Below are positions 1 through 23,240 of a DNA stretch of 42,561 nt, one piece after another. This DNA is from an uncultured archaeon. GTDB taxonomy: Archaea > Asgardarchaeota > Heimdallarchaeia > Heimdallarchaeales > Kariarchaeaceae. Numbering within the stretch: the first letter of the stretch is position 1; the number at the start of each line of letters is the position of its first letter. Position numbers and translations under genes: made by a program. The stretch is from the NCBI GenBank assembly GCA_964645535.1, contig CAZYCQ010000027.1:1-42561 (forward strand), in the 5' to 3' direction. The notes beneath the pieces are model-generated. The model saw nothing but the letters and a program-made list of their open reading frames with translations. It had not been told where the DNA came from and searched no databases.

Positions 1-3000
1 AATCACTTTCAAATGTTCTCCAAACAGACGAAGAAAGGTACTTGAGTATACTTATGGGGATCTTTACTTCTTTCACTAAGGAAATCTTATCAGATCTTAA
101 TTCTCCTAACAACTGATCTGGTAGAAGGGGGATAACTAAGGGGTTGGAAAGCATGTGCAAAATGCTCTGGGATCGATAAAGGTCGACAATCTCTGCAAGA
201 AGTCTTCCATCTAGATTCAGGAACAGAGGACTTTCAAGGAATGGCAAAAGAAAATCATTAAGTTTTTTGGGAAGGTGCATTTCTTTTGCACCAATCATTG
301 CCAAATCTTGGACAGTTCTGATATCTTTGACGTCCAACCAATCAAGCCTGAATGGAATGGGAATTGAACAATTGGTCCAAGAATACCATCCAAGATGGAG
401 GATATCTTTCATAGTGGAAGTGTCCAGATCATTTTGCCTGAAAACCAAAATTGCCTCAATGATATTCTCAGCACCTTGTTCTTGGGCAAATTCCATTTCT
501 CCAGGAAATGCCGTCAAATGGATGATATTGCTGAACAGAAAACGCTTCAAATCAGCAATTTCTGGGACTGAGGATTTGACGAATGGAATTACTTGATCTA
601 GAAATTCAATGCCGTTTTCCTTTAGTGATTTAATCAGTTCATTATCGGGTAGAACCTCTATGGGGATTCCTTTTGAGGAAAGGAGGATTCTATATTTTTC
701 TGTGGAAAATGTATCCTTCAATTCACGGAAGAATTTCAACGAGAGACCAGTCTTATCAGAAAGCTCATAGGGGTCTCTTAATATCAATTCCTCAATTGTT
801 GCCAAATTTGCATTCATCAGTGCCCTAAAGCTTGCTGGATCGATATCAAGAAGGGTAATGGGGGTATTGCCGCTTTGACTTAATTCAATGAGGAAACCAG
901 GAGTGTTGAAAGCCTCAAATAGAGGCAGTAGCCAATCATCATGATCGGGAGAATACCGAATCAATATTTCAGCTACTTTTTCGTCTAATATATCTTCATG
1001 TGGTGGAACAATGAAAGGAGCAAAGGCAGATTGTCTTAATTCAAGCATCAACAAAGATGGCAATCTTCTAAGTGCTTGTTTATCTACTTTATCCGGTGAA
1101 TTGATCCAGTTTTCTAGAATGGATCCATCGACAGGTGTTTGTGAGATGGCAGTGGCAGGGATTTTTGCCATTGCAACAAAAGGTCTAAAATCAATGAAAC
1201 GATTAGTCAATCGAGTTACCAAGGTATCAAGTTCAGCATCGTCATCAGACAAATCTTCTTCAGAAACGAATAAAAGATCCGCTAATGTAAGAATACCTTT
1301 TCCATTGAGTAAATCAAGTTCTTCTTCTGTTACAGAAGGAAATTCAGACAATGGCAAATCCAAAACCATTTGTGTATGTTTGATAAGGGTGGCCAAAGCA
1401 GGGTCATTAATGAAAGAATCAGAACTCAATTGATATTTAAGTTCTTGAAGTGTATCGATATCGCTACATTCGAATACACCTGATTTTGTTATTGACCTAA
1501 TCTCAGCTTTTCTGAAAATGTTGATGTCTTTGAGTGGAATACCATTCTCCTGTTCTGCCTCAGCCACTGTTTCACGAGAAATGTTGTCCAATATGAACTT
1601 GATTTCAGGTTTGGAAAGTCCAGTGATTTTAGAGGTTTTATTAATTGGAGTCAGAAGAAGGTTCAATATGCTTTTGATTCCACTTTCATGTAATTTCTTC
1701 GCGTGGAAATATCGAAGGTTGGGAGTAAAGAAAACCGTTTTGTCATATGCTTCGACAAGTGATGAAAACTCAAGAGCGTGCTTTAGATTTTCAAACCGTT
1801 CAGCAGGCAATCTGGTTTTTTGTTCAAGAATTTTGTCGCCAGTCAGCAGAAAGTCAATGATGGTCTGAATTCCACTTTTTGTCAGGGTGCTAATGATCTC
1901 TTCACCAAGTTCCTCTTCGGCAAATTTGACAGGGAGTTGGAGAAGTTGTTTGATTGAGCTTATGGCCTCCCATGGAACAAGATAGGAATCCCAACTCTCC
2001 TCGAATGTGGAGAAATAGAGATCCTCCAACGTAAGAAGATCATTTGCCTTCAGATGGGTGATTTGAATGGGTCTGAAAAGGTTAAGTGATTCCAAGTCAA
2101 TTCCAACTTCCTGAAGAATTACAGTAGTCTGTCTGGTCTTAGTCTGTTCAATCGGCCAGCCAAGGATTTCTGAAAGTTCTTCTGCCGGAGTGGTCAGAAA
2201 GTCAAAAACACGGGTAAGTTTTGCTTTGGATAGTTTCTTTAATTCATCTGCTTCCAAGGTTATGTATTTGAATTGTTTAATCTGTTCTTTTTCGTCAGCC
2301 TCAGGATTCTTTTCTGGGAGTGGAATTTCCTCTTTCCATGATAGAAGGACAGCAGGGGAACGAAGAAGAGATTTCATTTGGGAGATAACAGGCCATGTTA
2401 GTCCATAAACCTCAAACGTTTTGACCTCTGTCAGATAGTAGAGTTTCTCAATCGTATCATATCCAGATTCAATCAAAGATTGGATTTCATTGGAAGTGAA
2501 GTGAGGTACATTATCTACCTCAAATTCAAAGACACCCCTATACTTCCCTTTGGACACCTCAACTGCGATTGGTGTTCCTCGGAGTTTCAGGGAAGATTTT
2601 TCAATTTTGTCTTGTATCCGTTTCTTGGACTTTCCAAGGATATTGGCGATTCGAGTTGTCGGAGACAAAAACAATTGGTATATTCTTTTAATGCCATGCT
2701 TGCCTAATGTATCAATTTCAGAGCTTGAAAATTCACTTAGATGGACAAGTGAAAGATCGAGCTTTCGTTTTGCATTGAATACCTGAGCAACTCTGAAATA
2801 CAGGTTTTCAGGGTTTACCTCCTTTTCATCAGGATGATCAATCAGATAGAGAAAGAGATTTACAGCCTCAGAGGCTTTTTTCCCAGTCACCATTGAGGAG
2901 ATTTTGGATTTGGGGGAAGTAAGTAGCTGAAGGAAATTCCTAACACCTTTTGCCTGAAGCTTCTTCAATCCTTGCTGGAAAACCTTCTCAAGCTTTTCAT

Positions 3001-6000
3001 CCTTGAAAAATCCCGTAATTTCGGGTAGAGGACTGAAAAGGGCGGAATTTATGAGGTTATGTTTCACGATTTTTTTGCCTGCCATTGAATCAGGCAGTCT
3101 ATCCTTCCAGAGAATGGAAACAAGTTGACCGACGGTAAGAATGTTGAAAAACTTTGTAGCTTCTATTTCTGAAGAATTAAGAAATGTAATTGTTTCAATT
3201 GCAGGATCCTGTGCTTTGGCTTTTTTGATCTGTTTGAGATTAAACCCTTCTTGGAGTAATTCAAGCCATTCTTCAGACAGACCGGTTATCCTTGATATTT
3301 CATCTTTTGGCCAGATCAAGAACTTTCCAATTGTATTTATTCCTGCATCAATGAGAAAATTCATTGAGGGAATCAATTCATCAGACAGGAGATGAACAGA
3401 TTCAGCCAACAGCATGAAAAGTTCGGCCAACAGTGATTTATCTGTTTCACTTTCGATTCTTTGGTAGACACGATCAAAGTTGTAATAAAACTCTTCCAAA
3501 GTAAAAATTCCGACCTTATTGAGGATTTTAGCATTTCTTTTTCCAATCAAGTCAAGTTTATAGCCGTATTTCTTTTTCAGATTTTGCAGATCTTCTTTGT
3601 ATTCATTTTCATCAATCGGCGTTGCCAAGAATTCAAAAAGTTCTTCCAAATGGTTTTCGTTTATGTAATCTTCCAGTCCAGGCTCGATCACCTTGATTTC
3701 ATCTAAGGGGCTTACTTCATTGATTTGCATCAAACTATCGATGACACGATTCTTACTGTCTTCGAACAATAATATTCTCAGTTCATCGATTTTTTTGTGC
3801 TTGCTCATTTTGTGCGAATTGAGGTTTGCCAATTCTTCAAGAGTTTCAATTCCCAATTTTTGGAGGAGGGGAATAAATTTGGCACTTGTTTCAGATGCCA
3901 TAGTGTAGGGATCCAAAGGTGTCGAATAACCCATTAAAGTTTCCATGAGGTGTGTAAAAAGGAACCGTTGCAGTTCCCTGATTTCATTGACCACTTCAGA
4001 AGGCGTAGATAAGAGATCCTTGACTGTCTGCAATTTTCTTCGTTTGAATGCATTCCTCGTGTACCCATCAAAAAAAGGTTGGGGATTGTCAATACGTACT
4101 TCAAGGACAGAGGGGGTTTCATTTCCAATGTTATTCAATTTTTCCAGATATGTCTGGATAAGATCTGGACCAATGTTTTCTGAATTGATTGGGTTTGATG
4201 GGTGTGTTGTTTCTATTAGAAATTCGATATGGTTGGCAACCTTTCTTTTGCGAATTTCTGGGAATTTCAATAATTGGTCAAGGTCTGGGAGGAGATTTTT
4301 GGGATCAAGCAATCTTTGAAGGTCAATCTCTTCTTTATTTAGATCAATTTCAGATTTTGCTGTTGAAGGATCAAGAAATTCTTGAAGGGAAACTTTGTCT
4401 TCTTCGCTTAATTCATCCTCACCGACCATGGTTTCTTCAGCTAGTGATTGGGCAGAACTGAAATCAAGAGATTCAAGATCTGAGATCAAGGTTTCATTTG
4501 TTGAAAGTCTTTCATTGTATTGCTGGATTTCGTAAAGAAGAACAAGTTTTAACTCTTCAATTAATTTCGGTAATAGTCCTTGAACCTTATCCAATAAATA
4601 TGGTGGAGTTACAAGATAGTCCCAAGATGTTTGAATCCATCTTCTAGGAAGTGCTTTGGAAAGATGGGGCAGTTGAACTTCAGCATCACGTGAATGGAAT
4701 CTTCTTTCAATTTCCGGTGGAACAAGCAAATCAATTGGAAGGGAAGGAATATTTCCATAGGTTCCATGGATCAAGATTGTTTTTCGTTTGTAATAGTCAA
4801 TTCGTTCTGCTTTAATCCTCAATAATTTTGCAAGCCGTGCATTTTCGGTTCTGAGGAATTCTTCCGTTGTAAATATATTGTTTGATTGAAGTTTCAGTTT
4901 CCATTTTTCAGGAATCCAAATAGGTTCGATGAAAATTGATCTTCCCTTTGGAAGGTCAAATCTTCCAATTCGTGGCTCCCCTGACGAAAGTGCTGCAATA
5001 AGCCGTTCAGGTTTGAGTCCCACATCAGGATCCCACCGATTTGCTCGCTTCAGAATTTCGAGTAAATTATTCGCAGTCTGAGGAGCATATCGTTCAAAAC
5101 GTGATCGTCTCTGTCTTTCACGTTGTTTTCGTCTAGAACGGTTAAGGAATGATTTTAACTTTCGACCGAGTTGCAACAATGCCAATTTTATTTCTTCTGC
5201 AATCTCATCCACTTTGTCAATGTATTCTTTTGATGTTTCCGGGAAGGGAATTTTGGTCGATACGAGGGAGACCGCGATTGCCAAAGGATCAGATTGGCGT
5301 GTCAGACCATATTCATTCCACTTAATCGAATCTATGACATGTTTAATCACATCATTTCCTGCACCGAAAATCAAGGGAATACGGTTGGCATATCTATAGA
5401 TTACCTTGTTGTCGATAATTGTTGCCCCTTTTGATGCGGTTGCCTTATTGACCCCTCCACCATAGCCTATTGCAGCCTCAATAATAAAAGGATGTCCTTC
5501 ATAAGCTTTTGGCGGTCTGGTGACTGCTTCAACGAAAATCGGTTCTAATTCTTTCTCAATACCTTTACGCAATCTGTCTGCGCCCAATGGAGAAAGAGCA
5601 TCCCCTTTGGGCTCATCAAATTTGAAAATCCTATCTCTTTTTCTTTTTACTTCTTTTGCCTCACGGAAAGCTCTTTGAAATCCATCATGAACAATCCGCC
5701 TAATATCCTTTTCAGTCAGCTCCGAAGGTTTTTTTGTTGGATCAACACCTACTTCCTCAAAAAATGATTGTGCGGCTTGAAGACTTACGCCCATGAAGTT
5801 TTTTGAAAGAAACTCAACGACTGTGTCATTTGGGTCAGCCTGTGCAATCTCTCTTCGGAATGTGGTAATGTCGGTTCCCCAAGGGTGAACAGGGACAACC
5901 TCAGGAGGTTTAGGCAGATCATCAACGACCCTTTTGAAAATCAGTTCGTCTTCAGTTCCTGGTTCATCGCCAGGAAGGAAAATATGCATGTCTGCATAAG

Positions 6001-6742
6001 GGGTAATAATTGCCAATTGTTTGAAGTATTCTCTCACGTAATTCTTTGCTTGACCCCAGTTTCCAGTAAATGAGACCGTAACTTCTGTTCCGAAATCTTC
6101 GAAATAATCGGGGTCTTCTGGATGAATCACTTCATCAGAGATGATTATTGGCTTGTTTTGTTCCAAATTAATCTTCAACTTCACTCGATATGTGACATCA
6201 GATCCAATAGGTCTTGTAGTAATTTGGATGGGGAGATCCAGAGTAGACATTGAGTAAAGAAGAACCATCTTTGAACCGAGACCAAAACGTCCACGGGTTT
6301 GTTGAGCGCCATATTTTGTACCTGCAAGTACGGTTCCGAACAATTGCGGAATCAATTCGCGGGGAACACCGACACCATTGTCACGACATGTAAGTTGAAG
6401 GAAGTCCAATTTCTTGTTGCCCAAACGCGTTGAATCCATATCCATGAGATTGGAGACTTCTTCAACGGTCATTCGTCTGAGTCTCAGGAATATATTAGGG
6501 GTTACATTGCGTTTTTCTGCGGCATCTAACGCGTTTTCCACAAGTTCACGAATTGATGTAAAGACAGCCCTCAAAGGATTCCCAAAACCGGCTATGCTTT
6601 TGTTGTCATTGAAGAAGACAGCTGCACTTGCTGAACGAGCCTTTGAATCTGATCTTTTAATTTTCTTTGAGGGTGTTTGCTTAGTGACAATTTTTTCTTT
6701 TGAGATGGTCTTAGGTTTCTTTGGTGTCTGCTCGGTAGCCAA
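1..6742 (-). CDS. top6B: Giant DNA topoisomerase VI subunit B fused to a long array of HhH-like repeats (3' end lies outside the window; at least 2247 aa)
   Basis: Hand-translated from TTG at 6742 (AGGGG upstream). GHKL motifs: FFNDNKSIAGFGNPLRAVFTSIRELVENALDA, CRDNGVGVP, LAGTKYGAQQTRGRFGLGSK. Transducer motifs: RPPKAYEGHPFIIEAAI, RYANRIPLIFG, KWNEYGL, STKIPFPETSKEYI. No in-frame stop found by hand from about 5290 down to base 1. Its absence from the ORF track is consistent with no stop inside the window. Confidence 0.95.
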   Translation of the reverse strand, partial: MATEQTPKKPKTISKEKIVTKQTPSKKIKRSDSKARSASAAVFFNDNKSIAGFGNPLRAVFTSIRELVENALDAAEKRNVTPNIFLRLRRMTVEEVSNLMDMDSTRLGNKKLDFLQLTCRDNGVGVPRELIPQLFGTVLAGTKYGAQQTRGRFGLGSKMVLLYSMSTLDLPIQITTRPIGSDVTYRVKLKINLEQNKPIIISDEVIHPEDPDYFEDFGTEVTVSFTGNWGQAKNYVREYFKQLAIITPYADMHIFLPGDEPGTEDELIFKRVVDDLPKPPEVVPVHPWGTDITTFRREIAQADPNDTVVEFLSKNFMGVSLQAAQSFFEEVGVDPTKKPSELTEKDIRRIVHDGFQRAFREAKEVKRKRDRIFKFDEPKGDALSPLGADRLRKGIEKELEPIFVEAVTRPPKAYEGHPFIIEAAIGYGGGVNKATASKGATIIDNKVIYRYANRIPLIFGAGNDVIKHVIDSIKWNEYGLTRQSDPLAIAVSLVSTKIPFPETSKEYIDKVDEIAEEIKLALLQLGRKLKSFLNRSRRKQRERQRRSRFERYAPQTANNLLEILKRANRWDPDVGLKPERLIAALSSGEPRIGRFDLPKGRSIFIEPIWIPEKWKLKLQSNNIFTTEEFLRTENARLAKLLRIKAERIDYYKRKTILIHGTYGNIPSLPIDLLVPPEIERRFHSRDAEVQLPHLSKALPRRWIQTSWDYLVTPPYLLDKVQGLLPKLIEELKLVLLYEIQQYNERLSTNETLISDLESLDFSSAQSLAEETMVGEDELSEEDKVSLQEFLDPSTAKSEIDLNKEEIDLQRLLDPKNLLPDLDQLLKFPEIRKRKVANHIEFLIETTHPSNPINSENIGPDLIQTYLEKLNNIGNETPSVLEVRIDNPQPFFDGYTRNAFKRRKLQTVKDLLSTPSEVVNEIRELQRFLFTHLMETLMGYSTPLDPYTMASETSAKFIPLLQKLGIETLEELANLNSHKMSKHKKIDELRILLFEDSKNRVIDSLMQINEVSPLDEIKVIEPGLEDYINENHLEELFEFLATPIDENEYKEDLQNLKKKYGYKLDLIGKRNAKILNKVGIFTLEEFYYNFDRVYQRIESETDKSLLAELFMLLAESVHLLSDELIPSMNFLIDAGINTIGKFLIWPKDEISRITGLSEEWLELLQEGFNLKQIKKAKAQDPAIETITFLNSSEIEATKFFNILTVGQLVSILWKDRLPDSMAGKKIVKHNLINSALFSPLPEITGFFKDEKLEKVFQQGLKKLQAKGVRNFLQLLTSPKSKISSMVTGKKASEAVNLFLYLIDHPDEKEVNPENLYFRVAQVFNAKRKLDLSLVHLSEFSSSEIDTLGKHGIKRIYQLFLSPTTRIANILGKSKKRIQDKIEKSSLKLRGTPIAVEVSKGKYRGVFEFEVDNVPHFTSNEIQSLIESGYDTIEKLYYLTEVKTFEVYGLTWPVISQMKSLLRSPAVLLSWKEEIPLPEKNPEADEKEQIKQFKYITLEADELKKLSKAKLTRVFDFLTTPAEELSEILGWPIEQTKTRQTTVILQEVGIDLESLNLFRPIQITHLKANDLLTLEDLYFSTFEESWDSYLVPWEAISSIKQLLQLPVKFAEEELGEEIISTLTKSGIQTIIDFLLTGDKILEQKTRLPAERFENLKHALEFSSLVEAYDKTVFFTPNLRYFHAKKLHESGIKSILNLLLTPINKTSKITGLSKPEIKFILDNISRETVAEAEQENGIPLKDINIFRKAEIRSITKSGVFECSDIDTLQELKYQLSSDSFINDPALATLIKHTQMVLDLPLSEFPSVTEEELDLLNGKGILTLADLLFVSEEDLSDDDAELDTLVTRLTNRFIDFRPFVAMAKIPATAISQTPVDGSILENWINSPDKVDKQALRRLPSLLMLELRQSAFAPFIVPPHEDILDEKVAEILIRYSPDHDDWLLPLFEAFNTPGFLIELSQSGNTPITLLDIDPASFRALMNANLATIEELILRDPYELSDKTGLSLKFFRELKDTFSTEKYRILLSSKGIPIEVLPDNELIKSLKENGIEFLDQVIPFVKSSVPEIADLKRFLFSNIIHLTAFPGEMEFAQEQGAENIIEAILVFRQNDLDTSTMKDILHLGWYSWTNCSIPIPFRLDWLDVKDIRTVQDLAMIGAKEMHLPKKLNDFLLPFLESPLFLNLDGRLLAEIVDLYRSQSILHMLSNPLVIPLLPDQLLGELRSDKISLVKEVKIPISILKYLSSSVWRTFESD

Positions 6743-6764
6743 TTTCTTAACCCCTATTCTTGCA

Positions 6765-6827
6765 ATGTGCAAGCATTATTTCAGCTCATAATTTGGCGAT
6801 GACATTAGAGTTATCGCCAATGCACAT
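6765..6827 (-). promoter_or_regulatory. Nested inverted repeats in the top6B upstream region (structured leader or operator)
   Basis: ATGTGCA(6765-71)/TGCACAT(6821-27) encloses TTGGCGATGAC-N6-GTTATCGCCAA (6793-6820) and ATTAT-N8-ATAAT (6775-92). A TATA-like TTTAATTA lies on the minus strand at 6849-6856. Confidence 0.4.
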
Positions 6828-22782: not shown

Positions 22783-22900
22783 TGACCCGAGTGGGACTTT
22801 CGGAAGAGTTCCGCAGATTTTCTTCTATCGAACCCACAGCTAGGGAGATTTGTGGATTACTCCACCACAATCCCCAATGTTACCATTACACCATCGGGTC
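22783..22900 (-). tRNA. tRNA-His(GTG) with two BHB introns (37/38: 22848-22864, 17 nt; 59/60: 22797-22826, 30 nt); CCA not encoded
   Basis: Spliced sequence GACCCGA TG GTGT AATGGTA ACAT T GGGGA TTGTGG|C TCCCT AGCT GTGGG TTCGAT|T CCCAC TCGGGTC A folds to a full cloverleaf with an A15:U48 pair. Both introns form bulge-helix-bulge motifs. Confidence 0.93.
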
Positions 22901-22945
22901 TAAGCTCAGGTTGTCGCCTGTTCCGATTGTTCCTTGATTTTACAA

Positions 22946-22960
22946 TTATTAAAATTTTTC
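22946..22960 (-). promoter_or_regulatory. Putative BRE/TATA promoter of tRNA-His
   Basis: Minus strand reads GAAAAAT-TTTAATAA, about 29 nt upstream of the leader start at 22924. Confidence 0.5.
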
Positions 22961-23240
22961 AAGAAGAACAGTTCGGAGAACAGCTAGATATGGCAACTTT
23001 GTTCGCGAAGAAGAGAAGGAAATCCAGAAGTCCTTTCATTTTTGAATTGCCGTCAACTGCAATGGGATCAAATGGCTATTTGGAACCATTGAAAAGAGGA
23101 AGAATATCTCCAGAAAGCACAAAATGTTTCAAGGGGTTGGGATCTATCACATCATTTCTACTTATCAGACATTATAAATGTCGGTTTGATTTCCATGATG
23201 TATCAATCAAACCTGATTAAAAAAATCAAGGGCTAGATAC

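Follow-up and report, generated by a model that had tools for sequence, protein, structure and literature searches.

Asgard archaeal histidine tRNAs with A73 and no encoded G-1 accompany remodelled histidyl-tRNA synthetases

A minus-strand tRNA-His(GUG) gene with A at the discriminator position 73 and A at position -1 lies in the window analysed here, a 42,561-nucleotide stretch of an Asgard archaeal genome (G000), and is confirmed as a real gene. A73 is a lineage trait of five Asgard families (f1, f2, f4, f6 and f17) that share one enlarged histidyl-tRNA synthetase (HisRS), and tRNA-His and HisRS seem to have changed in concert on two or more independent occasions in the phylum. Reviews describe C73 as universal in bacterial and archaeal tRNA-His save in one alphaproteobacterial clade, and place a change to A73 early in eukaryotes (PMC6471195, PMC3245924). 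We consider it probable that, instead of the eukaryotic Thg1 route, a G-1-independent HisRS operates here, comparable to those of Caulobacter, Acanthamoeba and Trypanosoma. Among HisRS homologues, those labelled Kariarchaeaceae and Heimdallarchaeota LC_2 share a tree branch with the enzymes of G000's family, and the genome is thus best read as that of a Kariarchaeaceae-like Asgard archaeon.

Two introns, absent from the earlier note, interrupt the gene, which explains why neither ARAGORN nor Rfam returns anything from the raw window. We scanned every start position for introns of 11–59 nucleotides with a strict bulge–helix–bulge (BHB) motif and obtained four candidates, two of which fit a tRNA. 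The resulting gene is organized as follows:

22783..22900, minus strand: tRNA-His(GUG) gene from G1 to A73, 118 nucleotides unspliced and 71 nucleotides spliced, CCA not encoded
22901, minus strand: position -1, an A, that is, no encoded G-1
22865..22900, minus strand: exon 1, with the acceptor 5' strand, the D arm, the anticodon GUG at 22868-22866 and G37
22848..22864, minus strand: intron 1, 17 nucleotides, at the canonical 37/38 site, strict hBHBh'
22827..22847, minus strand: exon 2, C38 to U59
22797..22826, minus strand: intron 2, 30 nucleotides, at the T-loop 59/60 site, strict hBHBh'
22783..22796, minus strand: exon 3, U60 to A73
22783, minus strand: discriminator A73

Intron 1, after G37, has a BHB with h = 7, a central helix of 4 and h' = 3, and intron 2, after U59, one of h = 5, 4 and h' = 5. 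Removal of both introns yields a 71-nucleotide cloverleaf that ARAGORN calls as tRNA-His(GUG), as expected of the archaeal class of intron-containing tRNA-His with a strict BHB at each intron. In the cloverleaf G1 (22900) pairs with C72 (22784), which is followed by A73, and the earlier note had read these bases and the A at -1 correctly; the canonical prokaryotic histidine identity, encoded G-1 with C73, is replaced here by A-1 and A73. A homologue in a second genome of the same genus (G002) matches it exactly in the exons and differs in the introns, which occupy the same two positions, and this homologue, the 7-bp acceptor stem and both BHB motifs together establish that the gene is real and not a chance assemblage. 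Our scan found no other 59/60 T-loop intron in G000. A first intron of 14–15 nucleotides was rejected in favour of the 17-nucleotide BHB intron because it leaves a malformed loop, and a plus-strand ORF overlapping the gene (22852-23220), which has no Pfam match, was taken as spurious.

Sequences flanking the gene bear on how its 5' end is made:

22947..22960, minus strand: BRE/TATA-like element, kept in G002
22914..22924, minus strand: leader arm of an 11-bp G+C-rich leader/trailer helix
22771..22781, minus strand: trailer arm of that helix, followed by a U-rich terminator-like tract at 22770-22759

[quoted passage not shown] A leaderless start at -1 in the manner of Nanoarchaeum is unlikely, with an archaeal RNase P RNA found in G000 and the TATA-like box about 54 nucleotides upstream in two genomes. 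The leader/trailer helix is the longest among the tRNAs of G000, a length reached by 2 of 5,000 shuffles, and has 10 bp in G002 (L032), where one pair is absent on both sides. In both genomes it starts about 30 nucleotides past the TATA start and stops at the U tract, and it was not seen outside these two. The helix forms no BHB and its conservation ends at the genus, so it cannot account for a family-wide trait and was rejected as the cause of A73.

Pattern and BLAST searches of G000, which is 89.4% complete, returned only the studied locus and no second histidine tRNA; the second, C73 copy that the earlier note had listed among its refuting findings was not found, and public contigs covering position 73, from two samples of one study (the better one perhaps being the source sample itself), list no difference there and no C. 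ARAGORN also calls a 'tRNA-His' on contig C21, which is in fact a tRNA-Tyr, wrongly spliced and with C1-G72. The neighbours of the gene encode an MFS transporter, an FGGY kinase, CutA1 and glycine cleavage H protein, with no tie to tRNA processing. Elsewhere in the window, positions 267-6800 hold only short ORFs (<145 aa), against a dense remainder. That the gene is a pseudogene or an assembly error, with a canonical G-1:C73 copy in the unassembled part of the genome, is very improbable. The 89% completeness leaves room for such a copy, and a bin of the same genus (G001) does hold a G-1:C73 histidine gene, but that gene is probably a contaminant because it sits on a small contig (4.8 kb) whose CTP synthase is just 38% identical to that of G000. 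A73 is moreover invariant from family to family, and every closed genome that was read has one credible histidine gene, with A73, which largely refutes this explanation. Two bacterial-looking G-1:C73 histidine genes on short contigs in bins of A73 families, L160 (G001 C162) and L208 (G318 C772), are probable contamination.

The survey of N73 in Asgard tRNA-His that the earlier note had proposed revealed A73 in all 46 complete readable genes of f1, f2 (Heimdallarchaeaceae, including H. aukensis), f4, f6 (presumably Gerdarchaeales) and f17, a tally made partly by hand from printed matches. Among these 46 genes, 28 have T at position -1, 15 have A, two have G and one has C, one survey pattern having excluded C at -1 and G at 73, and G1-C72 is present in every gene read. 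A further 67 Asgard genomes, from 14 families, have G-1:C73, and the pattern searches missed histidine genes in several families (f8, f13, f15, f18, f22, f23, f25, f30 and f32). The G-1:C73 genomes include Thorarchaeota (38), Njordarchaeales (6), f14 (4) and f5 with f7 (6), the other two families of G000's class, which by inferred name are probably Hodarchaeales. A73 also occurs in a second set, made up of two f33 genomes, the Helarchaeota genome G310, Ca. Lokiarchaeum ossiferum and Ca. Harpocratesius repetitus. The last two (G314, loci L225 and L133; G220, loci L228 and L138) are single-contig genomes with A73, U10 in the D stem and no Thg1. Two genomes of the first five families encode G-1 opposite A73 (L201 in G006 and L067 in G303), the gene state of C. 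elegans, probably by chance. One candidate, L170 (G149), proved to be a tRNA-Phe with a D-loop intron; it was wrongly labelled A in the first HisRS tree and left out of the tRNA counts and the later tree.

HisRS varies together with the tRNA. G000 encodes a single HisRS that we could find (contig C6, 496 aa), with strong matches within its class in f1, f2, f4 and f6 and almost none in f5 and f7. In trees that were built without eukaryotic or alphaproteobacterial HisRS, the enzymes of f1, f2, f4, f6 and f17 form clade I (support 100/99), which lies in a well-supported group with enzymes of f14, Woesearchaeota and Gemmatimonadota, away from most Asgard HisRS, and those of the second A73 set form clade II (support 100/100). 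The insertion domain measures 158–164 aa in clade I versus 98–108 aa in enzymes of G-1:C73 genomes and outside homologues, and clade II enzymes carry an insert of 7–14 aa in the loop that precedes the LRPE motif, the same loop that lines the G-1 pocket. On the strength of this insert we predicted A73 for f27, and both f27 genomes read have A73. A topology with all A73 enzymes as one group, a group set by tRNA state but after a first tree had been seen, is rejected (p-AU about 1e-48); the two A73-associated clades thus appear unrelated on these trees, with a single origin rejected. The tree requires two changes of state, and related A73 genomes are therefore not independent evidence. In addition, an f3 genome (G013; L222/L149) has a tRNA-His with A-1/U73, two introns and encoded CCA, and on the same contig a HisRS on a long branch, whose pocket loop carries an insert of 13 aa. 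This pair may represent a third solution; T. brucei tRNA-His likewise has U73.

The gene encoding HisRS, hisS, lies near the tRNA-His gene in f6, f17 and clade II. This proximity and the patchy spread of clade I, in which f17 joins four Heimdall-class families, suggest that the tRNA/HisRS pair may have been transferred. Two f6 loci (L202 and L203) have tRNA-His about 4–5 kb from hisS, with an aromatic amino acid ammonia-lyase gene between them in L203, and in G314 and G220 the clade II HisRS lies within 10 kb of tRNA-His. A structural model of the G000 HisRS (pLDDT 93) places the extra part in added helices at about residues 194–249, and its best structural matches are the Thermoplasma and trypanosome enzymes, ahead of the human one; in sequence comparison Thermoplasma scores E 1e-70 and human E 3e-25. 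The description 'eukaryote-like' in the earlier note accordingly holds for the state of the gene, A73 without encoded G-1, and not for the synthetase, which has more in common with its Thermoplasma and trypanosome counterparts than with human HisRS.

The T. thermophilus complex has G-1 next to the two glycines of a D-R-G-G-R loop, with Arg115 and Arg122 binding the G-1 phosphate, and Caulobacter HisRS has Asp-Asp in place of Gly-Gly (PMC4357726). The first of these two loop positions is G or A in 0 of 34 clade I enzymes, versus 13 of 18 from G-1:C73 genomes and 10 of 12 outside homologues, and five clade I enzymes have D-D or D-E. Arg122 is replaced by Lys in 19 of the 34, versus Arg in 34 of 34 other Asgard enzymes, and position 115 is Thr in 33 of 34, at a site that varies among archaea anyway. 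The loop forming the G-1 pocket thus appears altered in both HisRS clades, with an imperfect signature: Ser occurs at the first position in A73 and G-1:C73 groups alike, f14 enzymes have E or K there although f14 tRNAs are G-1:C73, and the G000 enzyme itself reads N-G, keeping the second glycine, Arg122 and Gln117. The inspection of motif 2 and of the phylogeny that the earlier note had proposed yielded two remodelled clades and a Gln117 kept in 34 of 34 clade I enzymes. Gln117 is reported to co-vary with C73 in bacteria (Hawko and Francklyn 2001), and its retention would fit an editing of position 73 to C, or a trimming and rebuilding, that restores part of the usual identity. We give this idea hardly any credence, as most relatives (32 of 39) encode CCA immediately after A73 and a source of G-1 would still be absent. 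We know of no archaeal case in which tRNA position 73 is edited to C.

The choice posed by the earlier note, between Thg1-style G-1 addition and a G-1-independent HisRS, is a sound framing, and the search for Thg1 or Thg1-like proteins (TLPs) that it recommended came back negative. None was found in G000 by Pfam PF04446 or PF14413, by an unfiltered custom profile of 13 Asgard TLPs (best E 0.85) or by tblastn. Across the phylum 14 of 301 genomes are positive, and none of these is in f1, f2 (single-contig H. aukensis included), f4, f6, f17 or f27, a search that covered 73 genomes of clade I families; nor did 32 genomes from f27, f33, f31 and others, including single-contig Ca. Lokiarchaeum ossiferum, give a match. 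As a control, G077 (L197, C1:153000-162500) has a U-1/C73 tRNA-His with a TLP gene 8 kb away, the textbook templated route in chromosomal linkage. The only f14 genome with a Thg1 match in the 301-genome search (G057, a 155-aa frame) also has an A-1/U73 histidine gene that directly abuts another tRNA gene (L214) and may belong to a mobile tRNA array.

Characterized archaeal TLPs perform templated addition and opposite A73 would place U, not G (PMC3245924, PMC3061083). Eukaryote-style addition of G-1 opposite A73 after transcription, whether by a Thg1 that escaped assembly or by some enzyme not yet known, is quite improbable, even though the gene state equals that of eukaryotes, TLPs do occur in Asgard genomes, G000 is incomplete and both G006 and G303 encode G-1 opposite A73. 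Searches of A73-family genomes, some of them closed, all failed to turn up a Thg1 or TLP, and G-1 addition would leave the remodelling of the HisRS pocket without a reason. Of the two branches in the earlier note, the Thg1 one is thus unsupported, and a G-1-independent HisRS is favoured by the co-variation of tRNA and HisRS and by the altered pocket loop.

In the favoured mechanism, tRNA-His would be transcribed with the leader of about 24 nucleotides, the archaeal splicing endonuclease would remove both introns at the BHB motifs identified here, and RNase P would cut at +1 because the G-1:C73 pair is absent. Addition of CCA would give a mature tRNA-His without a -1 nucleotide, to be charged by the single remodelled HisRS, which would no longer need G-1. 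By analogy with Caulobacter, the enzyme probably reads the GUG anticodon, A73 and the acceptor stem, and so probably identifies tRNA-His in a way that has no described archaeal precedent. A different outcome, in which RNase P cuts one base upstream and the encoded N-1 is kept, with HisRS reading the extra 5'-phosphate and not the base, is unlikely. In its favour, A. pernix HisRS accepts A-1 and C-1 (PMC9976931), yeast is viable with U-1 tRNA-His (PMC6471195), an encoded G-1 is retained opposite A73 in C. elegans (PMC4338351), U-1 able to pair with A73 is present in 28 of the 46 genes, and the G000 enzyme keeps Arg122. Against this, N-1 is not conserved (T, A, G or C) and does not pair with A73 in 18 of 46 genes, G000 included; A and T are the usual bases before other tRNAs in G000; known shifted cleavage needs G-1:C73; and the HisRS pocket loop is altered.

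Several families of Asgard archaea, which are among the closest archaeal relatives of eukaryotes, have A73 as a fixed state with neither G-1 nor Thg1. On the synthetase side there are at least two independent solutions, to which the U73 case may add a third. Our literature searches, with most subscription journals outside their coverage, turned up no report of A73 or of G-1-less tRNA-His from Asgard or other archaea; if charging is confirmed, this would be the first archaeal G-1-independent histidine system. It is doubtful that eukaryotes inherited A73 from an Asgard ancestor already without G-1:C73, the Heimdall-group tRNAs representing a stage before non-templated Thg1. Convergence is more likely, because f5, f7 and Njordarchaeales keep G-1:C73 and because A73 goes with two unrelated HisRS clades and the G000 enzyme is not close to human HisRS. 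If the favoured mechanism is true, an 'almost universal' identity element would be easily lost, the order of events in eukaryote origin (A73 first or Thg1 first) would be affected, and candidate orthogonal HisRS/tRNA pairs would become available. Ca. Lokiarchaeum ossiferum, a carrier of A73 that is grown in enrichment culture, should allow the mature 5' end to be read directly and is, with Ca. Harpocratesius repetitus, the most accessible test system.

Among known systems, the RCS-clade Alphaproteobacteria, exemplified by Caulobacter crescentus, have tRNA-His without G-1 and a divergent HisRS (PMC3064791, PMC4357726). The Asgard system resembles theirs in A73, the lack of an encoded G-1 and a co-varying HisRS that carries inserts and has the Gly-Gly of the loop replaced, by D-D in Caulobacter and by D-D or D-E in the five clade I enzymes. 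It differs in having G1-C72 in all genes read where Caulobacter has G1-U72, a motif 2 Gln where Caulobacter has Gly118 (PMC4338351), a large insert in the catalytic insertion domain and not in the anticodon-binding domain, and an archaeal, intron-split gene. Trypanosoma brucei and Acanthamoeba castellanii have no need of G-1 and a Watson–Crick 1-72 pair (PMC4338351, PMC3561963), a likeness that for charging in Asgard archaea is one of prediction, and trypanosome HisRS is among the best PDB matches to the G000 enzyme in sequence and fold. However, T. brucei tRNA-His has U73, and trypanosome HisRS has no counterpart of the extra 55–60 aa of clade I. Mature eukaryotic tRNA-His normally has G-1. 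The eukaryotic cytosolic pathway, A73 with non-templated addition of G-1 by Thg1 (PMC3245924), is matched at the gene level by A73 and the absence of an encoded G-1, but no Thg1 was found in G000 (89% complete) or in its closed relatives. Standard archaeal tRNA-His (G-1:C73, or C73 with a TLP) shares BHB introns, RNase P RNA and G1-C72 with the gene described here; by contrast, C73 is A here and neither source of G-1 is present, and the pairing of C73 with a TLP gene that marks TLP-dependent archaeal histidine identity is absent from G000. By analogy, the Asgard A73 system would work like the G-1-independent systems of alphaproteobacteria and protists, without being a member of the Caulobacter type.
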